This document shows positions 8,009 through 64,000 of a DNA stretch of 64,000 bases, in pieces (the first letter of the stretch is position 1; each line of letters opens with the position of its first letter). A program made the position numbers and the translations under genes. This stretch comes from Naegleria gruberi (lineage: Eukaryota): NCBI GenBank assembly GCA_000004985.1, contig GG738896.1. One strand, given 5' to 3'. Under the pieces are notes generated by a model, which was not told where the DNA came from, searched no databases, and saw nothing but the letters and a program-made list of their open reading frames with translations.

Positions 8009-9085
8009 TTATGCCTCCTTGTTTGGAATTGGAGATTCAGATGGATATGTTATCTGTTCGTTTGGAGCCTCAATTGAAAACATATCTTTACCATTATAAA
8101 TAAATTTCTTACTCTTGTACATGTATTCATATTCATTCCTAAATGAATCTGCAATCTGACACCACAATGAGGCATTTTCCTCAATATCAAGTTCAGTTTT
8201 TCCATCCAACCATATCAGTGCAATTCGAATCTTGTCTCTTAATGATTCCATTGTGGCAATCTCTGAAAAGATAAACGTCCTGTTTGTAACTGTATCCTTC
8301 TGGCAATGTTCCTTTTCAAACTCTTGTTGATAAATCTTGGGTATCGACATTTTAGCCCACAAATGATACAGGTAATTCCTAGCTGATTTGTAATCATTCA
8401 ATTCTCCATATTCATCTGTGAGTGAATCAATATCAAAAGAAAACCAATCGATTGGCATTTCTACTTGTTGTCTACTTCTCATTGAAGAAGACAATGGTTT
8501 GAAATTAAAAACTGGAAAATCTCCCAAATCCAATTCATCTAACATGTCTGCACTTTTCCAATACTCTTCTTCCTTTTCAAAGAAATTAGATGAAAATCCT
8601 AGAGGGCTCTTCTTATCATTACAAGGTGATCGAACATATTCATTTGGATTACTAAATGGAAATCTATTATCCCATTCCTTCTTTACAGATCTGACACTAT
8701 TCGATCTCTCAATAGGTTCACAAGCCCACCTCGAAAGTAACGACGAATTCATCGTCATTGTTGATGAAGAAGGTACTGAAGATTTAGATCTTTGAGAGGA
8801 GTAGGATCTCGTCGATGGAGAGGTAGAATACATAGTCCTAGTGGTACTTGGGTTGGATCGGGATTGAGTCTTATTCATACTATTAGATTCATACCCGATG
8901 GGATTATCAAATTTACTCCTAAATTTAGCTAGTTTTAGTCTCTTCTTTTGTTGGTAGGTGAGTTGTTGTTGTTGTGCTTGTTGTTTATCCATGCTGTTCA
9001 TTCCCTTAAAGGTTTGTAGGGGTGGCGGTTGTAAATGTACAAGATGTTGATGATCCGACCTCTTTGATGACATTGTAGTGGTCAT
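8009..9085 (-). CDS. Hypothetical Ser/Gln-rich protein, 358 aa.
   Basis: ORF with ATG 9085..9083. The N-terminal half is low complexity (poly-Q, S/T-rich); the C-terminal half is globular. No family recognised. Confidence 0.3.
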   Translation of the reverse strand: MTTTMSSKRSDHQHLVHLQPPPLQTFKGMNSMDKQQAQQQQLTYQQKKRLKLAKFRSKFDNPIGYESNSMNKTQSRSNPSTTRTMYSTSPSTRSYSSQRSKSSVPSSSTMTMNSSLLSRWACEPIERSNSVRSVKKEWDNRFPFSNPNEYVRSPCNDKKSPLGFSSNFFEKEEEYWKSADMLDELDLGDFPVFNFKPLSSSMRSRQQVEMPIDWFSFDIDSLTDEYGELNDYKSARNYLYHLWAKMSIPKIYQQEFEKEHCQKDTVTNRTFIFSEIATMESLRDKIRIALIWLDGKTELDIEENASLWCQIADSFRNEYEYMYKSKKFIYNGKDMFSIEAPNEQITYPSESPIPNKEA

Positions 9086-9316: not shown

Positions 9317-12300
9317 TTATTCAACCTTAGATGATTGCTCTGATTGTTCTAGAGAGAGGGATCTGAAAATAGGGAAGAAGGAAGTAACATCATCATTGTC
9401 TTCACATCGATCGTAAATGTATTGTTCTGTACCTGTGAATTCAGTCACTGATTTTTGGTAGAGGTAAATTAAAAAGTAGACATAATTCCACAAGTAGTGT
9501 TCCTCCTTGACATGCTTTTCAAAGGTGATACCTTCATTGGCTCTTGTATCGAATTTAGTTCGTTCCAATCCACAAATAAAACACTTATCTCGAATGTCCT
9601 TCTTTCTGTCTTCTCTTTCATTTCTCAGTACTTCAAACGAATCGAGAATGACACCAAACACAACGTTAACAAGTAACACAATAACTATCACTAAAAAGGA
9701 AAGGTCAAGTATGGCTCTCTGAACTGAAACATTTGGATCATAAATATCCTCCCAAAAAGATTCTCCTCTAAAGCCATAATCCAACATGGTCACATAGCAA
9801 GCTAACATATCTTCACATGTCTTGTCGCCTGTCTTGGAGATTTTAAAATCTGAAGAAAAGAAGGTAAAATAGAGTGTACCAAAGAAGAATAAGGCAATAC
9901 ACAACAACATTCCTGTAAAGAACAAACGTTTCACATTCGAAGTAACTGATTTCAACACATCGGTCAATGACTTGAAGATGTAAACCATTTCAAAAAGCTG
10001 TATCGAGTAAATAATTGGAGTTATCAACAATCCAATCACAGAGACTACAATGTAAATAATAAAATACCAAATTTGAGAATCTTGTATGGTATATAAAAAG
10101 CATTTGGTCATAAAATCAAAATCTCTTGGAATTGAGTCCCACGTTTCGTTTTTCTTTAGCTTGAATCGTTTCTTCACTTCCAACGTCAAGAAGAGTGATA
10201 CATAAATGACAAATAGAATTACCAGGAAAATCAATTGTGTCACACCAACAATAATAAGAATTATATCACTTGCAAGATTTCTAGGTGCTGTAGTTTTGGT
10301 GAGAGCATATACATCAAAGTCACTGCCAGGTAAAGGTATTTGAGAATACTCTGTTGTTGCATAAATTCTCTTAAATGTTCCCAAAACAATAATATTAATA
10401 ATAACAGAGAGGAAGAATGAAGACAATCTCAAGTAATCCCACCAATTGGCAATATATTCCCATGATGCTGTTTTAACCTCTTGTTTCTTCTTTTTCTTTC
10501 GTTTTGCTAGCAAATTGCTGGTTGTGGCAACGAGAGACATTGAAGGCAAAAGATTTTCCATTTCCTCCTCTGGTTCCTCTTCTTCTTTCTTGTTGAGATT
10601 CGGAATAGTAAAAGTCTTTTTCATATTTTCATAGTGACACATTTCCACATAGAATGTACTGAATGTGTCATTGTACAATTTCCTAACTTTTTCTTGTGGA
10701 GTCATTACGTGCAACGAATTGGCATAGTTGCTTCTTGCCTTATCGATAATATTGTTACATATTGTTGGTTTGGGAAAGTAGATCTTTTCAAGTACGTTAT
10801 TTCTCAATACTTCAATGCTACCAGTTCTTTGTTTGAAATAAGAGAGCTCCTTTGAATTGGTTTGGAAAAAGTTGGCTACTCTTGATTCCTCTTCCAAAGC
10901 TTGAGTACCCTTTCTGAATTCAGTCTCACTGTCCCTGATCATGGAGAGAAGGAAAAAGATGTGAGTTCCCAAGTCATCGTATTGCAATCTAATCTTCTCG
11001 AGATTGTCCTCCATATAGTCGTCGACACGGATTGGCTTCTTTGAACTCTTCTCAGATTGATACAAAACATGGAATCCAAAGTCTTTACGCATTCTCTTTT
11101 TGAGTCTTTCAAGATCATCACAATCATCATGGTTATTACCCGATAGAGTTTCGAACAATCTCAAAATGTACAATAATTTTTGTTCAAAATCATCCAAATT
11201 CAAAGAATTTTTCATGAATTCTAATGTGACTGTGTTTCTTCCTTCCAATAGAGATATTAAGAAGAGTGTAATTTCCTTCTTGAGGTCAAGCTCTTGTTCC
11301 TTCAACAACTTGCTGTCATCGTAGGTCTTACTCATGATTTCATTGATAAGTCTTGGATAAATCTTATTGGATGTACCAATTAAATTTTGGTTAAAGACAG
11401 CAGGTCCTTGGACAAATTCGGTCAGGGTCTTAAAACCTTGGATGGCTACTTGAACATTGTCTGCATCCAATTTCTTTTCCAAAGCAATCAAATATTCAAT
11501 AATTTCCGTAATTAAATCAAAGCTGAAAATATTTCTTGGTTGATGTTTCAATAGGGCTTGATTTTTGGTATTATGGCCTTCACACAATAATCTCAAAAAT
11601 TCCATAGTGTTAAAAATGAATCCCTTTTCTACAAATTCCACACCAACTTCATCTTCTTCGTTATCATGGTCAGCATTGAGGTTAGTTGTAGACTTTTTCT
11701 GGTTAGCTAGTGCCAACTCCTTGTCTCTCTTTTTCTTCAAGTGATTCTTCATTTGTTTGATTTCAATCTTTGAGAGACGGATTCTGTCTCTAAGAGACAT
11801 GAAAAATTCGGTAGAGTCTTGATCTGTAAGAAGCGAATAAATATGATTCTGAACGTCAAGATCTCCGTCATTCAATATTAAAATACCAAGCTCCAAAGCT
11901 GATTTTGCAATTTGATGGTGGTTAGAGTTGAGGAATTCAATAACTACCTCAGGAATTTTCTTTTCCACCAAATCTAATTTAAGAGTTGATTCTTCGGTTT
12001 GTTGGTTTTGCCTTTCAACAATACTCTTCAAAATATCCATACCAAAGAGTCCTACCTTCATGTTCTGAAGAAGTAAACCAGAACTATTCAAGTCACGTAA
12101 TACATTGACGAGTGTTTTGATAAATCCATCATATTTGATAAATATGGCAGCAAGCTCTGAAAAGTTGGAAAAGTTTCTATTAATCTTGGAAATTATTCTG
12201 TCTTTCAAGTACTTTTTGTATGTGTTGTGGATAAGTTCGTCCTTCTCGGTACTGGTTGATGTTTGTATTCTTGATCTATGTACCTTGGCTTTAGTGGCCT

Positions 12301-15300
12301 TATTTGAAATGAAATTAGAAATTGCTTTCTGACTAGTTGAAGACATACTTCTCTTCAACATGGCCTGAATACATTTGAGAACTTTATCCCTATTCTCTGG
12401 ATTTGGTGTATGTTTGTGAAGTTCTATGAGTTTTATCAACAAATCTTCTGCAATATCCAACTGTTCTTTTGTCAGATTTGGAGGTGGGAAGTGGAGATGG
12501 AAATAATCTCTCACACAAGGAATCATAATATCAAACAAATAGGTATTATCAACTTGATAGGTTTCTTGATCTTCCTCACTAGGTCCAACGACTTTTGGAA
12601 GTGCTACAGAGTATGTTTTCGAAGATCGTTTGGAAGCAGTTGTTGACAATCCACGGTTTTTGGTTGGAGTAGCAAACAGTGAAGTGTTTGAGAGGGTTTT
12701 GCTTGGTGTTGTTGGGGTTCGAGTATGGGCATGCATAATACTTTGTCTTTCACCTTTTTGTGTGGATAAAATCAAGTCGTTACCATCTGATTCATTTGAA
12801 TAGGTCATTTCTAACACTTCCAATTCAGTAACCATTTTAGAGAATAACTTGAAAAGCATTGGATGATGAACATTTACCATCTTGCTCTCAGATTCTGTAG
12901 AGTCATCTGATGCCTTTTCAACATTCAAGTAAATTTCATCAATAACTTTAACCAATGGATTTCTCAATACAGGTAGAGTACAACAAATAACTTGTTCTAA
13001 AAGTTCTTCATAGCTGTAGAGGGTTTGTAATTTAAGCTCACTCTCTCTGTTTTTACCATCAGCAAGAGAGGCCAACAAGTATAAAAGGGCAATGTGATAA
13101 TTTAAAATACCATCTGGTTCAGTTTTGTGTTCACCTTTGATAATTCTTTGATTACGTTCTCTGAGACCTTCTTCGTCTTTGAAAAGAATCATAATGTCCT
13201 TCTTTCTTTCGAGCAGATATTTGGTAATGAGTGATTGGTTTCGTTTGATTGGATTGCCATTATTTGTTCCCAGAATGACATGCAAGAACAACAACATGAA
13301 AGAGCAAGGTTGCTCAGCAATTTGGTCAATGTAGTGTTCGATTAATTTTTCTTCAATAGTACTGCACAGACCTCTATTGTCTCTTACCATTTCACAAAGG
13401 AGAATGACAATCTTCTTATCTAGACTTCTATTCTCACCAATAGTGTGAATAAAGAATTCCAATTGTTTGAACATAATCTTTTGATTGTCTTGATTTCCTC
13501 TAACAAAAGCAATTAAAATATCAATACCAATCTCTTCAATTTCCTTGCTCACAATATAATCCTTCTTGAGGAATGTGAGAATAATATCATAAATGAAGAG
13601 ATTTCTCACTATTCTTTGTGATCTTTGACCATTCTTCTTGATATCTGATAGGATTTCATTGAGAGCTTTTAGGACTTTTTTCTCTTCCTGTTCTGTGAGT
13701 CTTCTAGTACCAAAATAATTGCTTTGACCATAACCAAAAACAGATCGCAACTCAACTACCTGTGAAAGTAGCAAATCGTAGGATTTAGCCATTTCTCTCG
13801 AAACGATAAGTTCAATCTTTGGAAGAACTTCACATAATTCTTGAGCAGATCTGTACTTTCTAATTAGTAAATCAAGGCAGGTTGTAGCGAGTTCCTTATT
13901 TTCATATTTGGTCAGCGAAAGAATTTTAACATCGAATCGATCCATCTTGTTGAAAATAACATCCTTTTCGAGAATATCTTTGATTACAGCATATTCATTA
14001 GAGTCAATTTCGGCAAGTCTTTTCTGTTGTAAAGCTCTATTGTCCATTGGTATCACCTCTTGTTCTCTAAGTACAGTCTCAATCTCTTCCTCTCTGTATT
14101 TCTTCCAAAAGAATTGCAAGAATTTTGTCACTCTCTTGTCTAAAATAATGTCTAGAATCATGTGGAAGATGGAAGCAATTTCAATTTTGATCTTCATGAG
14201 GGTTAAATTTTCTTCTACGTTTTTGTGTCTTTCTTCCTCACTAAGAATTCTACCATCCTTCTTGTCATTATCTCCTCTGAGCATATCAAAGAGAGAATTC
14301 AACAAATCACCCTCCTCAAAGTCTATCAATGTAAGAACTCCAAATTCCAACATTCTCTTACACATAATTACAACGTATAATGTAAAGTTGTTGTGATCCT
14401 TCTTTTCTAAAGACACATCCAAGCTAACATTCTCTCTAAGGAATTTCCCTAAAAAATCTTTGATTTCTGCCAAATCCTTTGAGTTGCCGTCTTCTTTTGA
14501 TCTTTGATTGAGAGTACTGGTTTTTCTGGTGTAGTCAATCAGTGGTTTCTTTTCTCTCTTCTCCGTATCAATGAAAGTTTGGATCAAAAGCTTTACAAAT
14601 GATGTTCTGACGGCTGGTGTTAAATTCTTATCAGAGACACATTTGTGGACAACTTCGTAGGTGAACAGAGAAACAACAGATCTTCTCGCATCCTCAATTT
14701 CTTCATTTCTTCCTGTACAGAGGGCAGCAAAAAGACGAATTTCCTCTTGGAAGAAGATGAGTTGTTCATAATTTGGTCTTGTGTATCCATTGTATGTATC
14801 ATCTGTTGCAGACTGAGAGAAACTAATCAAGTCTATTTCATCATGATTGACTTCTACCACAACCTTGTCTTCATTGTTAAGCTTTGGAATGATAAAAACT
14901 CTTCTCAATTGGTCCTTATATTTTGAAAAAAGCAAATTACCAATATATACCTGATTTTTCACCACAGTTTTACCTTCACAAATGATCAAGCTAGTCAAAA
15001 AGGATAAATAGACAGCCTTCTTCAAGCTCTTGGAACTTTGTCGCATACCAATCTTTGATGTGTTTTCAAAGAGAAGCTTGACGAAAAAGTCAATTTGTGA
15101 CTCGGTAATCTTGTTCAAAAGTGGATAATTGTTGGATAAGATTTCCAACAGAGCTTCACTTGCAGCAATGCTATGTTCAATCAGAGTTTGGATAAAGTTG
15201 ATATATTGTGCCATGTAGAGACCGTTAGATTCGTTTGAAAGGACAAACTGTCTAATGAGTCTGAAGGAGTACTGAACCACATCAAAATAAAGTGCCTTCT

Positions 15301-17664
15301 CTGGCTTTTCATAAATTAAAGATAAATCCTCAATTGATAAATATTTCTTCAATAATAGAGTGATATTTTCCATTACAAGACCAATGACTCCCATATCTCT
15401 GATGATATTTTGTCTAAGTTTAACAGGAATACCACCTCTTGTTAGAGGGTCTGTCTCTTCACTAATAGTACAAAATCTAATGCAATTTGCCAATGCACCA
15501 ATGTAGAGTTTGATATCTGACTTGTCAATGAGCGAGTCGTCCAACTTGGATTTGAAATACCTAATAATTGGCATGTAACCAGCTACGGTGAGTGCATCAT
15601 TCAAATCCTCATGTGAAACAGCTGAAAAATTGAAAACATCCTGTTCAAACATTTTCAAAGATGAAGTTACTCTCTGATAGGTTGAGTCAGCAAGTGGTCT
15701 AGATATGTGTACCCAAGAATTAGTGGCTTCATGCCTCAATCTAAAGTAATCGGTGGTTTGAACTTTCTCACCCTTCTTTTGTCCTCCAGTCGAGTCGGTG
15801 AAATGGAAGACACTGGTTGGTATTGGTTGTGTAATCAAGTCATCAAAGTTTTCAACATGAAGAGTCCACAATGAATCATTTTGTGTTACGCTGCCTGATC
15901 TATTTCCTCGTGGAGTGGCTACAATTGAACTTTTTCTAGGTGCATTAACTCCAAGTTGGCTCAAGTTATCACCAGATGTTGGTGTGTTTTCTCGTTCATA
16001 TCTTTCTTCAATGGCATCATCCGCTTCAATGGTTATTCCTTTAATAGGACGAATCACCATGTATTTTCCACTTGCCAAGTGTCTTAGACGGAATTTCGAA
16101 GTCCACTTTACAGTACCAGAACAGCTAGAGTCTAAAAATTCCAATTGCCACAAAGTTTGAGGACTCACATAGTCAGAAGATTTAGATTCCATACCAGCCA
16201 AGCTTGTATCCTCAGAGTCGTTGATTTGTAGATTGCTTGATTTCTTGAAAAATTTAATTCTATCCGTTTTTTCATTCACTCCAATATATCCTTCCAATTC
16301 CTTGTGGTATATTCTCATAATGGTGGATCCTGCTTTGAGTTTTCTATTTGTTTCATCATTTTGTGGTGTGTATTTTTGGTAGAGTTTCATTCTCCACCTA
16401 GTGAATGCAGTACTATTCGCCATGTTAACTTCTCTTCTACTATCGTAGGAATATTTTCCTCTATTTCGTGATAATTTTACAGCTTGTTGAGCTAATTCTG
16501 TGTATGAAGAATTTTCATTCACTCTTTGATAGGTACCATCATTGTCTTCTCCAGTTGTGTATCTATAATAGGATAAGTGAATAAATTGGTTGGACTTTTT
16601 GTTGTAAAGTCTAATTTGATCAGTGAGTTTAACTTGATCTCCATCCTTTTGAAAACTGGAATATGGCATTATTTGAAAGTATGAATAGGTAGATCCTTCT
16701 TTATCGAGGGCCAATCTCATACAATCCTTTTGCATTTCTGCAGATTCTCTTGCTACTGTCAGATAGCACTGTGTTTGTACATGATACAATTGTACTGTTT
16801 GTCCATAGACAACTGGTTTTGAAAGGTTTCTTTGTGATTCCATCCTATTTTGTTCAAGTTCTCTTTCAGCTCGTTGTTCCAATTGTTGATATTCTGTTGA
16901 GAAGGAGGCTGTCGAAGGCATTACATTATTCTTGTTATCCTTTGTTTTTTTGTTGGCCTCTTTCAACTCTTGTTCTTCTTTGAAGGTTTTGAACTTTTTC
17001 AGTGCTGAATAACTCTTTGGATGACAAATCTTGAAAACACAATTAGAAAAGTTTGGTGTAAAGAAGGAAGAATCCTTTTCTGAAATGACAGATTCCACCA
17101 GACCACATCTAGCTTGTGGTTTGTTTCTAAAATATTGATGAAATAATAAAAGTAGTATTTAACAGAGAATAAAGAAGGTGAATAATTAGTTGAATATTTA
17201 AACAATATTTACCCTTTAACATTCTCGGAACAAGTCAAATTAATACCATCCACACTCAAGAACCCAATCATTGAATTACCAGTACTTTTTGATGACAAAT
17301 CCGTATAGAAGGAAATTTCCTCTCCAATTCTCAAATAATCTCCCTTCTTTTTCATCATCATATTATTCATCCACAATTGTTGCTCATCCTCCTTCACATC
17401 ACTCATCACATCTTCATCCTCATCATACAAATGATGATCAAAGCCTTGTTGTTGCTGTGCAGAAGAGGATGATGATGACGAATATTCGGAATGTTGTTCA
17501 TGATGATGATTTGATGTGGCGCCATTATTTTTAACGGCAGAAGTGGCGCTTACCGATACGATGAGTTGTTCTTGTTGTTGATGAAATAAGAGTGCATAGT
17601 CAAAGAGGTGTTGTGATGATGGTTCGGAAGAGTTGCTATTGTTATGATTATTGGATAGTGTCAT
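9317..17664 (-). CDS. Inositol-1,4,5-trisphosphate-receptor-like intracellular Ca2+ release channel (IP3R/RyR superfamily), about 2750 aa. Two exons, join(17664..17213, 17126..9317), with an 86-nt intron.
   Basis: Exon 1 is track ORF 17209..17664, starting at ATG 17664. It has an Asn/Ser/Gln/His-rich leader, then the start of the suppressor/beta-trefoil domain 'LRIGEEISFYTD...GFLSVDG' (compare IP3R1 'LHIGDIVSLYAEGS..GFIST'). A GG|GTAAAT donor at 17212 and a TTTTAG acceptor at 17127 join in phase 2 to the 2593-aa ORF ('...ARCGLVESV...CVFKICHPKSYSALKKF', compare 'DRCVV...CLFKLCPMNRYSAQKQF'). The C-terminus has six-TM channel helices, a pore region, and the diagnostic '[44 protein letters not shown]' (IP3R '[36 protein letters not shown]'). 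Confidence 0.8.
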
Positions 17665-18022
17665 GTTGTGAAAAGTCTTCCAAAACTATTTCACTTATTT
17701 TTTTTTGTTAAATGTTGACAGATGAAGGATTGTCAGCTTATCAATATTTCAAGACGTGTGTTATACAATTTAATTGATAAATATTTCCTCAATCAATACA
17801 ACTATTAGCCATTGTTAATCCTAATGTTGTATTATCTGAATTATTTAAATTTTGGCGCCAACTAGTTGAAAAAAAAGAACAAACATCTCATCAAGGTTTT
17901 GCTTTTGATTTACAGTTTTTTTGTATTCCTTCCGATCACTGACTCACCCTGGCTACAACTTCTGTAATATTGTTATTCTTGCTACAGTAATACTCCTCCT
18001 TTTTGTAAATATATTAAAAAGA

Positions 18023-18895
18023 ATGAAATTAACAATTCGATCCGATAAACCAATTGTAAATTTGTATAATAATTTCCCAAAAGATTTAAGGGAACATTTG
18101 GAAAAGTGGGATTTAGGTACTGAGAGTACTTTCTATGAATCGTTCTATGTGGATTTGGATATGAATCAACATGATGAAGCATTAGTAAATACCGAATCTA
18201 AGGAACTGCTCCTCAAAAGGGCCCTTGCAAATTCTGATCAAATCAAGGAACTGGCTAATGAGTACTTGAATAGATTGAAAGAGAGATTTATTTGCTGTGG
18301 AGCTCTGCATCAATTAGATACTGTTCAAGATGTGTCACCTATGAACATCAAGTTGGCAGACATGACGTTAATTCAGAGAGAATTTCTAACCAATGAGTCG
18401 TTGTTATACTTGAAATCTCTCAACACCAGAAAATGCTTAGACGAACAAATTGACTCTGAAATGTATGTCTCTGATGAGTACAGAAAGGCTATGGCATACA
18501 TGTTGTGGGCTGAAGGATGTACCTATTACAATGAAGATACTTTCATTGAGAATTGTAACTTCCAACAGTACGGACTAGTGGAGGACTCTTGGACTAATAT
18601 TTGTGCTCGAGAGCTACTGTTGCATATACATGCAAGATTGGTTATAGGAGGAAAATTTGGCCAGTATGAAGATAATTTGATGCCATATTTTAATAATACC
18701 AAGTTACTATATAAGAACATTGTCTCCGTGCAGAAAGTGAGCAGTGTTGATTCAAATCAAAGTAGTCAAGGTTTTTCCATTGCATCCAAAGCGTACAAAT
18801 GCCCAGTCACCAACGATCTGGTGGATAAGAGTTACTTCCTCCTAATTGTTCATCCAATAGATAAGAAGGTTACAATCATGTTGCATGCAGAGTGA
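18023..18895 (+). CDS. Hypothetical protein, about 290 aa.
   Basis: The track ORF is 17921..18895 and its first ATG is at 18023 ('MKLTIRSDKP'). Globular, no family recognised. Divergently oriented from the IP3R-like gene. Confidence 0.35.
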   Translation: MKLTIRSDKPIVNLYNNFPKDLREHLEKWDLGTESTFYESFYVDLDMNQHDEALVNTESKELLLKRALANSDQIKELANEYLNRLKERFICCGALHQLDTVQDVSPMNIKLADMTLIQREFLTNESLLYLKSLNTRKCLDEQIDSEMYVSDEYRKAMAYMLWAEGCTYYNEDTFIENCNFQQYGLVEDSWTNICARELLLHIHARLVIGGKFGQYEDNLMPYFNNTKLLYKNIVSVQKVSSVDSNQSSQGFSIASKAYKCPVTNDLVDKSYFLLIVHPIDKKVTIMLHAE

Positions 18896-22815: not shown

Positions 22816-24360
22816 ATGATCAATTCGGAACAGACAATGATTGATGATAATAATTTACTATCAACCACTCCACAATTTAAAATTATTTGGTTGGATGAGA
22901 ATTTCATGCACTTGCAAAGTTCCATTCACAAAATTAAATGTGTTCTTTTCAATGCCAGTGTTGACCAAAGAGATTTTAATGAATCTTTCGATCTAATTGA
23001 GTTGGAGAAACATGTTAGAAATTTAATATCGAATAATAATCATGTGATGGTAATTACGAGTTATAGTAAAGGAAAGGGATGCCAGGTTTTGGAATTGTTG
23101 CAAAGATTGAAGAGAAGTAATGAGGAGCAAGTAATTTATTCATGTGTCTATAGTGGAAGTGCTTTACGAAATGTAATGCTTCAGAATTTGTGCATTTTGC
23201 AATATGGAGCTGATTTTGTTTCGTCTTTGAATAATGCGAATGCCTTGTTGGAATTGGAAAGTTTCATTGCTCAAATCTATCAGAAATCATACTATCCAAA
23301 ATTAATGAAATATCTGAGCAGATTGGTATTCCAGAAAGATAATATGGAACATTTAATTTCGCCTACTAGCACTCTGGTACGATCTCACATGGTTCTTGAG
23401 GAAGAAATTGAAAGAGAAACACTCAGAGAACAAGGAAAGGAATATGATTGTAAATGGGAACACGTCCCTCTCAGAAAGATAGCTCACAATTTGCATTTGC
23501 AACAATCGGCCTGTCTTTCTCTCACTCACCGACCACTCGTTCAACAACCTCAATTCCTGGTCATGATTCAAACAGGAGCCATTAATCCACCTCACAAAAT
23601 GCATCAACAGGGATTTGAAGTTGCTAAGGAATTTGTGGAAAATTATCAAACTCTAATGAAGGCAGTGGAGAGTAAACCAAAGCTGAATAGAGAACTCTTG
23701 CAAAAGATTCTGAGACCTATCAAGGTGGTTGGATGCTACATGTCGCCAAGTCATGATGGATATATCAAGAGTAAGGCCTCCAAATACAAGTATTCCAGTA
23801 CTGTTCGATTGTATACTGCAACAGAGAGATTGACAATGTGTGCGTTACAAACACAAGATGATCCATTCACATGTGAATATCCTTGGGAGTCTTGCCAACC
23901 TAAATTTATATCCTTCTCTCAAGTGGGAAATACCTGTTCCACAATACTGAGAAGTGCCGAATGTCCAATTTCAATGCTCATGCCTAAAAATCCAAATACC
24001 AATCAATATCAAGATTCCTGCTCTTATTTGAGAGTTTGTTATACATGTGGAGCTGATTTGATTTTGAGAGCTGGCCTTAGAAGATTCGATTACTTTGAAG
24101 ATATGTTATCACTTGTGGTTGGAAGACATGGAGTTAATGTTGAGGAGGTTATGAAGTCAATTAATGAAGCTCATAACAACATGCCAGTTTTCTATGTAGA
24201 GATAGAGAATATGCAGGAAAATGCATTAAGCTCAACTGAAGTTAGAACTTGTTTGGAGAATATTGCCAAGAATGAAGATGTTAAAAATTCTAGAATGAGA
24301 TTGGAAAAAGTATTGGACCTTAGAGTTTTGGAATATATTATTAATGATTGCAAACTGTAA
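22816..24360 (+). CDS. NMNAT-family (nicotinamide/nicotinate mononucleotide adenylyltransferase-like) nucleotidyltransferase with a roughly 250-aa N-terminal extension of unknown function. 514 aa.
   Basis: 'FLVMIQTGAINPPHKMHQQGF' is the (H/T)xxH nucleotidyltransferase motif (GSFNPxTxxH). 'VGCYMSPSHDGYIKSK' matches the ISPVxDxYxKK motif. The C-terminal 'LSSTEVRTCLEN' matches ISSTxxR. Confidence 0.55.
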   Translation: MINSEQTMIDDNNLLSTTPQFKIIWLDENFMHLQSSIHKIKCVLFNASVDQRDFNESFDLIELEKHVRNLISNNNHVMVITSYSKGKGCQVLELLQRLKRSNEEQVIYSCVYSGSALRNVMLQNLCILQYGADFVSSLNNANALLELESFIAQIYQKSYYPKLMKYLSRLVFQKDNMEHLISPTSTLVRSHMVLEEEIERETLREQGKEYDCKWEHVPLRKIAHNLHLQQSACLSLTHRPLVQQPQFLVMIQTGAINPPHKMHQQGFEVAKEFVENYQTLMKAVESKPKLNRELLQKILRPIKVVGCYMSPSHDGYIKSKASKYKYSSTVRLYTATERLTMCALQTQDDPFTCEYPWESCQPKFISFSQVGNTCSTILRSAECPISMLMPKNPNTNQYQDSCSYLRVCYTCGADLILRAGLRRFDYFEDMLSLVVGRHGVNVEEVMKSINEAHNNMPVFYVEIENMQENALSSTEVRTCLENIAKNEDVKNSRMRLEKVLDLRVLEYIINDCKL

Positions 24361-59362: not shown

Positions 59363-60981
59363 CTTGGGTTTGGGTTGGTGGGGTTTGGGTGAGTTTTATA
59401 CACTTTCATACAATAGAGTGATATTGAAATGTACCCTTTGATATTTCTGGATGGGTAGCATGATTTAGTGATGATTCCGACAATAAAAATCATATATTGT
59501 TCATATAATTATCAAGATATTGTATAATTTATTAAATATAAAGTGGGTAATATTGAATATTCTTTGTAGGAGCGGAAGCACTTATTCTTGTCAGTTGGAG
59601 TCAGTATTGTATTAAGGTTCATTTTAGGAATCTTAAAAAAATACAATAACAACTCACCTGCATCAACATCATCAAGTATATCATCTATATTGAATATAAA
59701 GCAACAGCAAGAATGTATGGAGTTGATTCAACATGATTATTGGATTGGAGAGATGGCAAAAATATTACTATTATTGTATTTGTCAAGTTGGAAGTACCCT
59801 CAGGATCATCAGCGAGGTTTCCTCTTCATCTCTTCTTGTTAGAGAGGTTTTTCATCCACAAGATGGTCATCTTCTTCATTGAAGAGGTTGCTTTATTATT
59901 AAGCACTGAGAGAAGCGTTTTTAAATTTTATTTTGATGAAATAAATCAAAATTTATTACGCACAACACATCAAGAACAACAACAGCAACATGCTGATACA
60001 CCATCATCATCACTGGGTGAATTGGCCATCATTGTTGTATAATTTCTTGGAATTTATTGGATTAACAGTAAATTTTGGAATTACTCTCCTATTGAAGATG
60101 GAACATCAGCAACATCACCAAGATGATCTTCAATTGGATAGTATTGTTTTCAGAAGTGGTTTCACGCTTTTTGTGGGCTCTTTCAACATACCATCATCAG
60201 AATGGTCATCATCTTGTTGAGGGAAGATGTTCAACCTTGTTTTGGAAAGTAGAATATCTTACCACCACTCTATTCTCCTATTTTGATTGGATTGGTGGAG
60301 GTGCCACCACCTCTTCATACATTGGGTTTGGGTTGGTGGGGTTTGGGTGAGTTTTATACACTTTCATACAATAGAGTGATATTGAAATGTACCCTTTGAT
60401 ATTTCTGGATGGGTAGCATGATTTAGTGATGATTCCGACAATAAAAATCATATATTGTTCATATAATTATCAAGATATTGTATAATTTATTAAATATAAA
60501 GTGGGTAATATTGAATATTCTTTGTAGGAGCGGAAGCACTTATTCTTGTCAGTTGGAGTCAGTATTGTATTAAGGTTCATTTAAGGAATCTTAAAAAAAT
60601 ACAATAACAACTCACCTGCATCAACATCATCAAGTATATCATCTATATTGAATATAAAGCAACAGCAAGAATGTATGGAGTTGATTCAACATGATTATTG
60701 GATTGGAGAGATGGCAAAAATATTACTATTATTGTATTTGTCAAGTTGGAAGTACCCTCAGGATCATCAGCGAGGTTTCCTCTTCATCTCTTCTTGTTAG
60801 AGAGGTTTTTCATCCACAAGATGGTCATCTTCTTCAATTGAAGAGGTTGCTTTATTATTAAGCACTGAGAGAAGCGTTTTTAAATTTTATTTTGATGAAA
60901 TAAATCAAAATTTATTACGCACAACACATCAAGAACAACAACAGCAACATGCTGATACACCATCATCATCACTGGGTGAAT
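59363..60981. repeat. Subtelomeric direct tandem repeat with a 959-bp unit. There are at least 1.7 copies, the second cut off by the assembly gap. Each unit begins with a degenerate telomere-like tract (GGGTTTGGGTTGGTGGGGTTTGGGTGAG).
   Basis: 59365-60323 and 60324-60981 are near-identical, offset exactly 959 bp. An example is '...gagttttatacactttcatacaatagagtgatattgaaatgtaccctttgatatttctggatgggtagcatgatttagtgatgattccgac...' in both copies. Only single-base differences were seen, for example tttaggaatc versus ttaaggaatc. Confidence 0.7.
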
Positions 60982-62796
60982 NNNNNNNNNNNNNNNNNNN
61001 NNNNNNNNNNNNNNNNNNNNNNNNNNNNNNNNNNNNNNNNNNNNNNNNNNNNNNNNNNNNNNNNNNNNNNNNNNNNNNNNNNNNNNNNNNNNNNNNNNNN
61101 NNNNNNNNNNNNNNNNNNNNNNNNNNNNNNNNNNNNNNNNNNNNNNNNNNNNNNNNNNNNNNNNNNNNNNNNNNNNNNNNNNNNNNNNNNNNNNNNNNNN
61201 NNNNNNNNNNNNNNNNNNNNNNNNNNNNNNNNNNNNNNNNNNNNNNNNNNNNNNNNNNNNNNNNNNNNNNNNNNNNNNNNNNNNNNNNNNNNNNNNNNNN
61301 NNNNNNNNNNNNNNNNNNNNNNNNNNNNNNNNNNNNNNNNNNNNNNNNNNNNNNNNNNNNNNNNNNNNNNNNNNNNNNNNNNNNNNNNNNNNNNNNNNNN
61401 NNNNNNNNNNNNNNNNNNNNNNNNNNNNNNNNNNNNNNNNNNNNNNNNNNNNNNNNNNNNNNNNNNNNNNNNNNNNNNNNNNNNNNNNNNNNNNNNNNNN
61501 NNNNNNNNNNNNNNNNNNNNNNNNNNNNNNNNNNNNNNNNNNNNNNNNNNNNNNNNNNNNNNNNNNNNNNNNNNNNNNNNNNNNNNNNNNNNNNNNNNNN
61601 NNNNNNNNNNNNNNNNNNNNNNNNNNNNNNNNNNNNNNNNNNNNNNNNNNNNNNNNNNNNNNNNNNNNNNNNNNNNNNNNNNNNNNNNNNNNNNNNNNNN
61701 NNNNNNNNNNNNNNNNNNNNNNNNNNNNNNNNNNNNNNNNNNNNNNNNNNNNNNNNNNNNNNNNNNNNNNNNNNNNNNNNNNNNNNNNNNNNNNNNNNNN
61801 NNNNNNNNNNNNNNNNNNNNNNNNNNNNNNNNNNNNNNNNNNNNNNNNNNNNNNNNNNNNNNNNNNNNNNNNNNNNNNNNNNNNNNNNNNNNNNNNNNNN
61901 NNNNNNNNNNNNNNNNNNNNNNNNNNNNNNNNNNNNNNNNNNNNNNNNNNNNNNNNNNNNNNNNNNNNNNNNNNNNNNNNNNNNNNNNNNNNNNNNNNNN
62001 NNNNNNNNNNNNNNNNNNNNNNNNNNNNNNNNNNNNNNNNNNNNNNNNNNNNNNNNNNNNNNNNNNNNNNNNNNNNNNNNNNNNNNNNNNNNNNNNNNNN
62101 NNNNNNNNNNNNNNNNNNNNNNNNNNNNNNNNNNNNNNNNNNNNNNNNNNNNNNNNNNNNNNNNNNNNNNNNNNNNNNNNNNNNNNNNNNNNNNNNNNNN
62201 NNNNNNNNNNNNNNNNNNNNNNNNNNNNNNNNNNNNNNNNNNNNNNNNNNNNNNNNNNNNNNNNNNNNNNNNNNNNNNNNNNNNNNNNNNNNNNNNNNNN
62301 NNNNNNNNNNNNNNNNNNNNNNNNNNNNNNNNNNNNNNNNNNNNNNNNNNNNNNNNNNNNNNNNNNNNNNNNNNNNNNNNNNNNNNNNNNNNNNNNNNNN
62401 NNNNNNNNNNNNNNNNNNNNNNNNNNNNNNNNNNNNNNNNNNNNNNNNNNNNNNNNNNNNNNNNNNNNNNNNNNNNNNNNNNNNNNNNNNNNNNNNNNNN
62501 NNNNNNNNNNNNNNNNNNNNNNNNNNNNNNNNNNNNNNNNNNNNNNNNNNNNNNNNNNNNNNNNNNNNNNNNNNNNNNNNNNNNNNNNNNNNNNNNNNNN
62601 NNNNNNNNNNNNNNNNNNNNNNNNNNNNNNNNNNNNNNNNNNNNNNNNNNNNNNNNNNNNNNNNNNNNNNNNNNNNNNNNNNNNNNNNNNNNNNNNNNNN
62701 NNNNNNNNNNNNNNNNNNNNNNNNNNNNNNNNNNNNNNNNNNNNNNNNNNNNNNNNNNNNNNNNNNNNNNNNNNNNNNNNNNNNNNNNNNNNNNNN
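60982..62796. other. Assembly gap of 1815 N.
   Basis: Run of n characters. The flanks suggest it hides further copies of the 959-bp subtelomeric repeat. Confidence 0.95.
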
Positions 62797-63024
62797 TAAA
62801 AGAGGTCAAGGAGAGATTTCAAAACATAAAATAAATTATATTTTCGAGATGTACTATTGATTTCCAATCGATTGATATGTATTTTGTAGATTGAGGATGT
62901 GGTTCTTTATTTGAAGAGTTCCTCCTTAACTTACCAAGTAAACCCTGATATTTCACCCTTTACCTTACTGAATGATGGAATATTCACCAAAATATCTGTA
63001 AACTGAACCATATATATTATTAGA

Positions 63025-63500: not shown

Positions 63501-63548
63501 GATTTAATATGTTTTGATGAGAAACTCAAAAGTTATAGTTGACCTATT

Positions 63549-64000
63549 GGGTTTGGGTTGGGTTTGGGTTTGGGTTGGGTTTGGGTTTGGGTTTGGGTTT
63601 GGGTTTGGGTTTGGGTTTGGGTTTGGGTTTGGGTTTGGGTTTGGGTTTGGGTTTGGGTTTGGGTTTGGGTTTGGGTTTGGGTTTGGGTTTGGGTTTGGGT
63701 TTGGGTTTGGGTTTGGGTTTGGGTTTGGGTTTGGGTTTGGGTTTGGGTTTGGGTTTGGGTTTGGGTTTGGGTTTGGGTTTGGGTTTGGGTTTGGGTTTGG
63801 GTTTGGGTTTGGGTTTGGGTTTGGGTTTGGGTTTGGGTTTGGGTTTGGGTTTGGGTTTGGGTTTGGGTTTGGGTTTGGGTTTGGGTTTGGGTTTGGGTTT
63901 GGGTTTGGGTTTGGGTTTGGGTTTGGGTTTGGGTTTGGGTTTGGGTTTGGGTTTGGGTTTGGGTTTGGGTTTGGGTTTGGGTTTGGGTTTGGGTTTGGGT
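63549..64000 (+). repeat. Telomere: about 75 tandem GGGTTT (TTTGGG) hexamers with occasional GGGTT variants. The G-rich strand is oriented toward the window end.
   Basis: Perfect hexamer periodicity to the last base of the window. The TG-rich strand runs 5'->3' toward the terminus, as expected for a right chromosome end. Confidence 0.85.

Follow-up and report, generated by a model that had tools for sequence, protein, structure and literature searches.

We show by comparative analysis that the Naegleria gruberi gene NAEGRDRAFT_52142 encodes a predicted full-length protein of the IP3R/RyR superfamily that is maintained by selection and has the architecture of an IP3R. The motif GGGxGD is the accepted hallmark of IP3R and RyR pores, and its mutants serve as 'pore-dead' controls; in the aligned place this protein has ESFWED. 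The comparisons also show that this type of filter is conserved across its clade and is under purifying selection, that the putative Ca2+ sensor, zinc finger and gate are retained, and that the predicted IP3-pocket residues are lost. We favour, at a probability of about 60%, the reading that the product is a functional, probably Ca2+-gated cation channel of endomembranes with an acidic Glu/Asp filter, for which canonical gating by IP3 is improbable.

Gene structure and family membership

The window, the whole 64,000-nt stretch of DNA analysed, comes from N. gruberi NEG-M. The gene spans two open reading frames on the minus strand, 9317..17098 (2593 aa) and 17209..17664 (151 aa). The first-pass annotation had placed a low-complexity leader in a separate 5′ exon joined to the main frame through an 86-nt intron, and both proposals are borne out. 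Exon 1 (17213..17664, minus strand) begins with the ATG at 17664, encodes a His/Ser/Gln/Asn-rich leader followed by the first strands of the N-terminal β-trefoil (LRIGEEISFYTD...GFLSVDGINLTCSENVKG), and ends in phase 2 after GG. The intron (17127..17212, minus strand; GTAAAT...TTTTAG) has its donor, GG/GTAAAT, at 17213/17212 and its acceptor, TTTTAG/A, at 17127/17126, and exon 2 (9317..17126, minus strand) supplies part of residue 151, the remainder to residue 2753 and a TAA stop. The joined coding sequence of 8262 nt is in frame, has a single terminal stop and yields a protein of 2753 aa that matches GenBank EFC39952.1/XP_002672696.1 residue for residue from end to end, an entry whose public annotation is 'predicted protein'. 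In an N. fowleri-type ortholog (contig L002) the coding sequence is interrupted at this codon too, and in the same phase (GG/GTAAGT...ATAG/A), by an intron 280 nt long that is unrelated in sequence to the 86-nt intron of N. gruberi. The leader motif LFDYALLFH and the start of the trefoil are kept in N. fowleri (P0153) and Willaertia magna (P0004). Splicing extends the Pfam match to Ins145_P3_rec across the junction, from profile positions 43–202 to 6–202, with positions 6–42 coming from exon 1.

The view that the gene is IP3R/RyR-like was likewise confirmed, by Pfam, by sequence search of the PDB and by an AlphaFold model. Five Pfam domains score above their gathering cut-offs: Ins145_P3_rec and, in exon 2 on the minus strand, MIR (15704–16165), RIH (14924–15493), RIH_assoc (11366–11626) and Ion_trans (9614–10255). 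The protein has the trefoils/MIR, RIH and RIH_assoc domains and six-transmembrane Ion_trans domain of the superfamily, the trefoil being complete once spliced, and both of the tail motifs named in the first-pass annotation are present. With phmmer, the C-terminal region matches IP3R1 (E = 7.6e-44) and RyR2 (2.9e-38) in the PDB. An AlphaFold2 model of the 395-aa C-terminal part, built as a monomer (pLDDT 85.5), has its best Foldseek matches in the transmembrane domains of IP3R3, RyR1 and RyR2 (E = 7e-16 to 1e-14), with TM-scores of 0.66–0.69 to those of the RyRs. The pore-domain fold of the superfamily, comprising a pore helix, an extended S6 and a zinc-finger linker of C2H2 type, is supported by the model, its Foldseek matches and the alignment. 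Ryanodine receptors contain SPRY domains, RyR repeats and an EF-hand pair, are about 5000 aa long and have the filter GGGIGDE; the N. gruberi protein departs from them in domains, size and filter, and gave no Pfam match to SPRY, RyR repeat or EF-hand at E ≤ 0.01 over its 2753 aa.

The gene is real, already annotated and unstudied, and its product is by sequence a giant channel of IP3R/RyR type. Literature searches on its accession numbers found no paper, and those on Naegleria with IP3R, RyR or selectivity filter found no relevant one. For the neighbouring reading frame at 8009–9085 an exact database look-up gave no match. A dictyostelid origin, first suggested by the GC content, was set aside, the database matches being to Naegleria. 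The low GC content at 60–64 kb was considered as a biological signal and rejected as an artefact of a run of N; in other parts of the window the assembly is interrupted by a gap and contains repeats.

The selectivity filter

In the phmmer search of the PDB the IP3R1 filter stretch falls gaplessly opposite YGFRGESFWEDI, between the conserved pore helix and S6, and MAFFT, run on the protein together with 15 full-length homologues, places it identically. The residues E2606 S2607 F2608 W2609 E2610 D2611 (codons at 9746..9763, minus strand, checked by translation; the interval 9746..9781 translates to DYGFRGESFWED) align without a gap to GGGVGD of IP3R1 and correspond to G4894–D4899 of RyR1, which puts E2610 at the position of RyR1 G4898. 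The preceding helix, M2591–R2604 (MLACYVTMLDYGFR; 9767..9808, minus strand; helix 233–246 of the AlphaFold2 model, pLDDT about 90), aligns with the IP3R1 pore helix by both methods. Where ITPR proteins have GGGVGD (GGGXGD), none of the three glycines nor the Val/Ile is left, and large aromatics now occupy two of these positions. The 2753-aa protein contains neither GGG nor G[VIL]G[DE], and the earlier suggestion of a non-canonical filter holds, with no canonical G(V/I)GD in the P-loop or elsewhere.

That the substitution stems from misalignment, from an error of sequencing or assembly, or from a wrong gene model has a negligible probability, and we found no evidence for it. The two alignment methods agree on a gapless register, Foldseek aligns the model to IP3R/RyR transmembrane domains, the protein is free of the canonical motif throughout, and the gene model is the public one. 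ESFWED furthermore recurs in P0153 (from GenBank) and P0003 (from a Logan SRA assembly), two independently assembled N. fowleri-type sequences, where the underlying DNA differs synonymously. On alignment and codon comparison we rejected a pseudogene, together with misalignment, a canonical motif elsewhere and sequencing error.

The N. fowleri-type ortholog shares 65% identity with the N. gruberi protein over 2693 aa, and a database ortholog entry stands at 78% identity. Compared with their counterparts in the N. fowleri-type ortholog, the N. gruberi codons of ESFWED show four synonymous and no non-synonymous changes, and those of the longer stretch G2602–Y2613 six and none. The change of filter is, on the sequences compared, not peculiar to NAEGRDRAFT_52142 but a signature of a heterolobosean/jakobid clade whose genomes each hold several paralogs. 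About 20 cluster representatives contain R-x-x-[GSA]-[FYW]-[WFL]-E-[DN], with carriers in Naegleria, Willaertia, Heterolobosea sp. BB2 and the jakobid Stygiella. In a neighbour-joining tree without support values, the FWED-type sequences group together as one clade. At least four N. fowleri paralogs have such a filter (001802, ESFWED; 007007, AASWEN; 011878, EAFLEN; 005992, GGFWED); Willaertia has DSAFEN, DGFFED, EGFLED and GGFWED, BB2 has GGWWED and Stygiella GGFWED. The Glu equivalent to E2610 is kept in about 19 of the 20 members, and at the final position Asn replaces Asp in several paralogs. Within the zinc-finger region the heterolobosean members have in common a DxxANEG insertion that Stygiella lacks. 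In the present, unpublished analysis we define an 'FWED-filter' subfamily by the filter R-x-x-[GSA]-[FYWAS]-[WFL]-E-[DN], a short loop between filter and S6, and a position in the cluster of Naegleria, Willaertia, BB2 and Stygiella sequences; the N. gruberi protein has all of these features. A second class, G-x-P-x-W-[DNET], found in Ancoracysta, Platysulcus and others, clusters separately, which hints that Trp-containing filters may be multiple in origin or old.

Ca2+ sensor, gate and zinc finger

Two putative Ca2+-sensor glutamates, E2025 (in DLITEIIEYL) and E2112 (in LISLLEGR; both within 11237..11518, minus strand), align by MAFFT with the glutamates of 'VCETLQFL' and 'LLAIMES' in IP3R1, which belong to the activating Ca2+ site of IP3Rs and RyRs, and the cytosolic Glu pair of the superfamily is thus present. 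The second is kept in 15 of 16 aligned sequences and the first in most, with D, H or Q in three. The pore-lining S6 helix and its cytosolic extension (residues 2619–2664; 9587..9724, minus strand; helix 261–306 of the model, supported by alignment) contain the gate residue F2641 in NVVFGVIL, opposite NLIFGVII of IP3R1; where S6 ends on the cytosolic side, its acidic residue is likewise conserved in the MAFFT alignment. The C2H2 zinc finger of the linker domain aligns at C2666 C2669 H2689 H2694 (9497..9583, minus strand), and the corresponding columns (C308 C311 H331 H336) are invariant in a 45-sequence alignment (A1).

These features bear on whether the pore conducts at all. The filter Asp is essential in IP3R1, and several FWED-type paralogs have Asn there. 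This exchange, and the loss of every filter glycine and the Val/Ile with two large aromatics among the replacements, would suit a non-conducting protein acting as scaffold or sensor, or a pore switched to a quite different permeant species, as would the abolition of Ca2+ current by the G4898R mutation of RyR1 (PMC2668181). We regard this reading as distinctly improbable. Its difficulty lies in the purifying selection on G2602–Y2613, in the near-invariance of the filter Glu across the clade and in the conserved pore helix, S6, gate Phe and acidic S6 terminus, which it would hardly explain. The four N. fowleri paralogs identified are, moreover, all of FWED type, so that if the genome holds no canonical paralog it would be left with no conducting channel of this family.

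The IP3-binding pocket

The IP3-contact residues established by structural work, R265 T266 T267 G268 R269 R504 K508 R511 Y567 R568 K569 in rat IP3R1 numbering, have their equivalents within 15221..16252 (minus strand), as placed by phmmer against mouse IP3R1 (5xa0) and by MAFFT; the register of the RTTGR loop is that of phmmer, the MAFFT placement there being unreliable. K446 S447 S448 N449 stand opposite R265 T266 T267 G268, and R269 is replaced by Met after a 13-aa insertion in the loop. K720 N724 R727 lie opposite R504 K508 R511, and N782 E783 S784 opposite Y567 R568 K569, with a reversal of charge at R568. Only R511 is identical and 10 of the 11 residues differ, so the 'IP3-receptor' label would be valid for architecture only. 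In place of the basic pocket of ITPR proteins, sequence comparison leaves K446, K720 and R727 as basic residues, which may bind inositol phosphates weakly or in a non-canonical manner.

It is nonetheless conceivable, though unlikely, that the protein is a true IP3-gated Ca2+-release channel with a lineage-specific filter and a remodelled yet working pocket. The IP3R-type domain order, the best sequence and fold matches to IP3Rs, the retained R511, the Lys at R265 and R504 and Ser at T266 and T267 in N. gruberi, and an acidic E-D pair compatible with cation permeation all speak for it. Against these stand the changes K508→N, R568→E, K569→S, Y567→N, R269→M and G268→N and the 13-residue insertion in the RTTGR loop. 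The K-S-S of the pocket loop becomes KKPV in the N. fowleri and KKKV in the Willaertia orthologs, and because these orthologs differ there, the conservative-looking residues of N. gruberi do not appear to be under pocket-type constraint.

Proposed mechanism and significance

On the favoured reading of a Ca2+-gated channel, the protein would form a tetrameric cation-release channel of endomembranes, in which cytosolic Ca2+ acting on E2025 and E2112 would drive opening and the signal would be relayed through the zinc-finger linker to the S6 gate at F2641. The binding site of the filter would be a ring of the clade-conserved E2610 with D2611 (Asp/Asn), which presumably coordinate the ions, whilst the Phe and Trp side chains would presumably pack behind the filter and not line it. 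IP3 is probably not the ligand, or is bound differently. Ion selectivity and cellular location are likewise inferred as parts of this reading. In RyR1, acidic residues beside the filter control conductance and Ca2+ selectivity, and D4899Q drops PCa/PK from 7 to 1 (PMC2668181). A filter Glu with Phe and Trp just before it could mean that Ca2+ permeation is changed or abolished.

A more tentative proposal, which we hold to be possible, is that these channels constitute an undescribed, ancient, IP3-independent heterolobosean/jakobid subfamily, built around a four-fold Glu ring with an aromatic cuff and not around glycine carbonyls. If the Glu-ring reading is true, GGGxGD would not be obligatory for the IP3R/RyR superfamily, and permeation should be clearly unlike that of canonical members, for example with much higher Ca2+ affinity or selectivity or another preferred cation.

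A natural and apparently selectively maintained alternative (aromatic-aromatic-Glu-Asp/Asn), present in several paralogs and genera including the pathogen N. fowleri, offers a natural experiment on how wide, weakly selective pores choose Ca2+. To our knowledge, Ca2+ signalling in Naegleria is essentially unstudied at the level of channels, and NAEGRDRAFT_52142 provides a testable way into it. The N. fowleri paralogs could in principle be selectively targetable, because their pore and ligand pocket differ from those of the human proteins.

Comparison with known systems

The best matches in sequence and structure are ITPR1–3, with which the protein shares its domain order (two β-trefoils/MIR, two RIH domains, RIH_assoc, six-transmembrane Ion_trans, C2H2 linker and C-terminal tail), its size (2753 aa against about 2700–2750 aa), the pore helix, S6 with its gate Phe and the Ca2+-sensor Glu pair. 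It differs from them in the filter (ESFWED against GGGVGD), in the IP3-contact residues, in a much shorter luminal S5–pore loop (about 10 residues) and a filter–S6 loop five residues shorter, and in three residues inserted in the zinc-finger region and the additional low-complexity leader. With RyR1–3 it has in common the superfamily core, sensor glutamates, zinc finger and pore fold, and the absence of a requirement for an IP3 pocket, but it is about half their size and lacks SPRY, RyR-repeat and EF-hand domains. As in RyR1 (D4899-E4900), the luminal end of the filter carries two acidic residues side by side (E-D); the Naegleria pair lies one position nearer the pore helix, and other residues stand in place of the GGGIG backbone.

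Variant filters have been known in protist homologues since 2011, and ESFWED of Naegleria is a further variant. In CRC-I to CRC-VI of Paramecium (Ladenburger and Plattner, 2011; PMC3213138) and in oomycete ITPR homologues (PMC7399828) the GGG[VI]GD motif is partly kept or variant, and in CRC-VI it is unrecognisable (PMC3213138); some of these homologues also have no recognisable IP3-binding domain (PMC3213138, PMC7399828). As protist superfamily members without a canonical filter they provide a precedent that this filter is not universal. They mostly retain a glycine core (GGV/IG, GGGLG[G/S]), however, whereas the Naegleria clade has its own aromatic-aromatic-Glu-Asp/Asn motif and is separate from filters of the G-G-[IL]-G-[GS] type in the neighbour-joining tree, which carries no support values. 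The kinetoplastid homologues of Trypanosoma and Leishmania belong to the same supergroup, Discoba, and share the overall IP3R-like architecture, yet are reported to keep GGGXGD (Prole and Taylor, 2011; PMC3194816). It follows that a filter of FWED type is not general in Discoba but specific to the heterolobosean and jakobid channels.

Results

Gene structure

The ORF listing places two ORFs on the minus strand, a main one of 2593 codons (9317..17098) and an upstream one of 151 codons (17209..17664). The 3′ end of the upstream ORF reads GTT AAA GG/GTAAAT on that strand (slashes mark exon boundaries), and 86 nt on from this donor lies the acceptor side, TTTTAG/A AAC AAA CCA. With 17213 joined to 17126, the CDS measures 8262 nt, stays in one frame up to a single terminal stop and encodes 2753 aa; the coordinates, intron ends and 86-nt intron length put forward in the first-pass annotation match this reading of the minus strand exactly. 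By exact-sequence look-up the spliced product is identical to EFC39952.1 / XP_002672696.1 / UniProt D2VTL3, the public record for which is the ‘predicted protein’ NAEGRDRAFT_52142 of Naegleria gruberi NEG-M, and five of the other window ORFs are exact N. gruberi proteins from the same 331,721-bp scaffold. The channel gene is already annotated publicly, as an uncharacterised predicted protein.

Three independent lines, namely domain continuity, the position and phase of an ortholog's intron, and the junction peptide, argue that exon 1 is spliced to the main ORF, as had been proposed. The Pfam match to Ins145_P3_rec covers profile positions 43–202 without exon 1 and 6–202 with it, spanning the junction. 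The ortholog (P0003, on the N. fowleri-type contig L002 of a Logan SRA assembly) shares 65% identity with the window protein across 2693 aa and falls in one 90% cluster with N. fowleri FDP41_001802. Its intron (AAG GG/GTAAGT ... ATAG/A AAT AAG) has the same codon and phase as in N. gruberi; it is 280 nt long and unrelated in sequence to the shorter N. gruberi intron, whilst the coding sequence on either side is conserved. The junction peptide, too, is conserved between N. gruberi (INLTCSENVKG/NKPQARCGL), N. fowleri (INLTCSESIKGNKQYVRCGL) and Willaertia magna (VNLHCHHIKGNKKYIRCGL), as is a short motif in the leader (LFDYALLFH / FIDYASLFH).

The two Naegleria species share local synteny, albeit with an inversion, as both a CFAP300 homologue and an NMNAT gene (22816-24360) are neighbours common to the window and L002, which further supports the orthology. 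The CFAP300 homologue, a cilia/flagella protein, lies directly upstream of the channel gene in divergent orientation (17921-18895, plus strand) and shows 43% identity to the gene annotated by Pfam as CFAP300 that adjoins the L002 ortholog.

At its end the window carries 76 perfect copies of the 6-nt unit TTTGGG (63547-64000; TRF unit TTGGGT). This looks like a chromosome-end telomere array, which would place the channel gene about 46 kb from the end of a scaffold or chromosome. Internally, at about 60325-60350, there is a degenerate copy of the unit, gggtttgggttggtggggtttgggtg. A subtelomeric direct repeat (59364-60022 / 60322-60981; spacing 958-959 bp), with 100% identical blocks of 300 and 145 nt, abuts a 1815-nt assembly gap (N run, 60983-62797). 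The N run and the telomere repeat account for the artefactual low GC and extreme GC skew of the 60–64 kb bins, and three ORFs longer than 600 aa at 60929-62867 are spurious products of the N run.

Family membership and ligand pocket

Pfam domains, sequence matches and predicted fold agree in placing the window protein in the IP3R/RyR superfamily, with an architecture of the IP3R type. Ins145_P3_rec, MIR, RIH, RIH_assoc and Ion_trans all exceed their gathering scores, and no SPRY, RyR-repeat or EF-hand domain was found in the protein by Pfam. In phmmer searches the C-terminal 381 aa match IP3R1 and IP3R2 at E 7.6e-44 and RyR2 at E 2.9e-38, and the N-terminal 734 aa match IP3R1 at 1.4e-34. The last 395 residues were modelled with AlphaFold2 from a 45-sequence alignment (mean pLDDT 85.5), and in Foldseek the model best matches human IP3R3, RyR1 and RyR2 transmembrane domains (E about 1e-15, TM-scores 0.6-0.69).

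The IP3 pocket itself is not kept. The eleven residues that contact IP3 in IP3R1 according to established structural work were placed by phmmer alignment to the mouse protein, with which MAFFT agrees for the last six (R504 to K569). R265, T266, T267 and G268 correspond to K446, S447, S448 and N449, and R269 to a methionine past a 13-residue insertion; R504, K508 and R511 correspond to K720, N724 and R727, and Y567, R568 and K569 to N782, E783 and S784. Four of the seven basic residues are lost, one through charge reversal. The conservative-looking K-S-S is not constrained, since in the MAFFT alignment N. fowleri has KKPV there and Willaertia has KKKV. The identification as IP3R/RyR-like thus holds for architecture, but the ligand is probably not IP3.

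Other functional sites are retained. Both glutamates of the cytosolic Ca2+-activation site are present (E2025 and E2112), the C2H2 zinc finger (C2666, C2669, H2689, H2694) falls in invariant alignment columns, the S6 gate phenylalanine is kept (F2641 in NVVFGVIL, compared with NLIFGVII in IP3R1), and so is the acidic residue where S6 ends on the cytosolic side.

The selectivity filter

The first-pass annotation had noted that the canonical pore signature is substituted, and the alignments bear this out. A 26-residue pore stretch of IP3R1 aligns without a gap to TCEDMLACYVTMLDYGFRGESFWEDI in phmmer, and a MAFFT alignment that includes 15 full-length homologues agrees on this register, which the conserved pore helix and S6 delimit. 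In place of G-G-G-V-G-D the protein has E2606-S-F-W-E-D2611 (9763..9746, checked by translation), so that RyR1 G4894-G-G-I-G-D-E4900 is equivalent to E-S-F-W-E-D-I. The terminal Asp is retained and the last Gly is Glu, which shifts the acidic pair (D4899-E4900 in RyR1) by one position. A canonical G(V/I)GD elsewhere would have told against substitution, but neither GGG nor G[VIL]G[DE] occurs anywhere in the window protein. In the model, the filter lies between the pore helix (2591-2604) and S6 (2619-2664) and is predicted with confidence (pLDDT 86-89) as a loop that makes a short turn at W2609-D2611.

The substitution is not peculiar to this gene. Exhaustive HMMER searching with the C-terminal domain among 1.84 billion cluster representatives returned 4501 relatives, and filters were extracted from the best 150. 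GGG[IVLM]G[DE]-type filters account for about two thirds of the aligned sequences (108 of 156), and the closest relatives among those 150, roughly 20 in number, all carry R-x-x-[GSA]-[FYWAS]-[WFL]-E-[DN]. These include N. fowleri FDP41_001802 (ESFWED), FDP41_007007 (AASWEN, read from the paralog locus L001, VFQX01000056.1), in which even the Asp is replaced, and FDP41_011878 (EAFLEN); N. fowleri FDP41_005992 and N. lovaniensis C9374_011527 (both GGFWED); five Willaertia magna proteins (DSAFEN, DGFFED, GGGW-D, GGFWED, EGFLED); Heterolobosea sp. BB2 (GGWWED); and the jakobid Stygiella incarcerata (GGFWED). The Glu is present in about 19 of 20 clade members and is followed by Asp or Asn. A neighbour-joining tree built on the pore-to-tail region, drawn without support values, groups these FWED-type sequences in one clade separate from all canonical ones. 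The FWED-type filter is a signature of a heterolobosean/jakobid clade.

The C-terminal channel region of FDP41_007007 occurs twice in tandem on L001 (17711-19180 and 19849-21436), as amino-acid-identical copies about 2.1 kb apart, at a locus publicly annotated as three genes (1767, 233 and 1517 aa); the two copies reflect either recent tandem duplication or an error of assembly. IP3R/RyR-like channels of unrelated protists (P0089, P0097, P0102, P0106, P0114, P0115, P0120 and P0141, from Ancoracysta twista, Platysulcus tardus and metagenomic sequences) have a second class of non-canonical filter, G-[FLIMW]-R-[GD]-[AP]-P-x-W-[DNTI]-[DEQ]. Its Trp aligns with the Naegleria Trp position, and the class forms a separate cluster in the tree.

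Over the codons for G2602-Y2613, N. gruberi differs from the N. fowleri-type ortholog by six synonymous changes, one of them a TCT/AGT serine switch, and by no non-synonymous change. The loop directly after the filter varies freely between the same two proteins. The variant filter is under purifying selection rather than decaying.

Discussion

The most economical reading is that the window protein would be a functional tetrameric endomembrane cation channel, although what we say of its conduction, gating ligand and location we infer. As in Ca2+-induced release, the conserved Ca2+ sensor, zinc finger and S6 would mediate gating, with canonical IP3 control lost or replaced. The invariant Glu and the Asp/Asn after it would form the cation site of the filter, with the aromatic residues packed behind it. 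Mutagenesis of RyR1 supports the importance of acidic filter residues: in D4899Q the K+ conductance is 164 pS, down from 801 pS, and PCa/PK falls from 7 to 1 (PMC2668181). The main caution comes from RyR1 G4898R, which conducts K+ but not Ca2+ (PMC2668181); the equivalent position is Glu in the window protein, and selectivity may therefore differ substantially.

In the literature outside subscription journals we found no report of an aromatic-aromatic-Glu-Asp/Asn motif or of its conservation in the heterolobosean/jakobid clade, and no paper on Naegleria IP3R-like channels or accession XP_002672696.1; given that coverage, the absence is weak evidence. Non-canonical filters in protist homologues do have precedent. 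Most Paramecium CRCs have a GGV/IG core or variants thereof, CRC-VI is practically without similarity there, and given this divergence the authors called the permeation properties an open question (PMC3213138). Oomycete ITPRs carry GGGIGD or GGGLG(G/S) (PMC7399828). Kinetoplastid homologues, in contrast to the window protein with its ESFWED, keep GGGXGD (PMC3194816).
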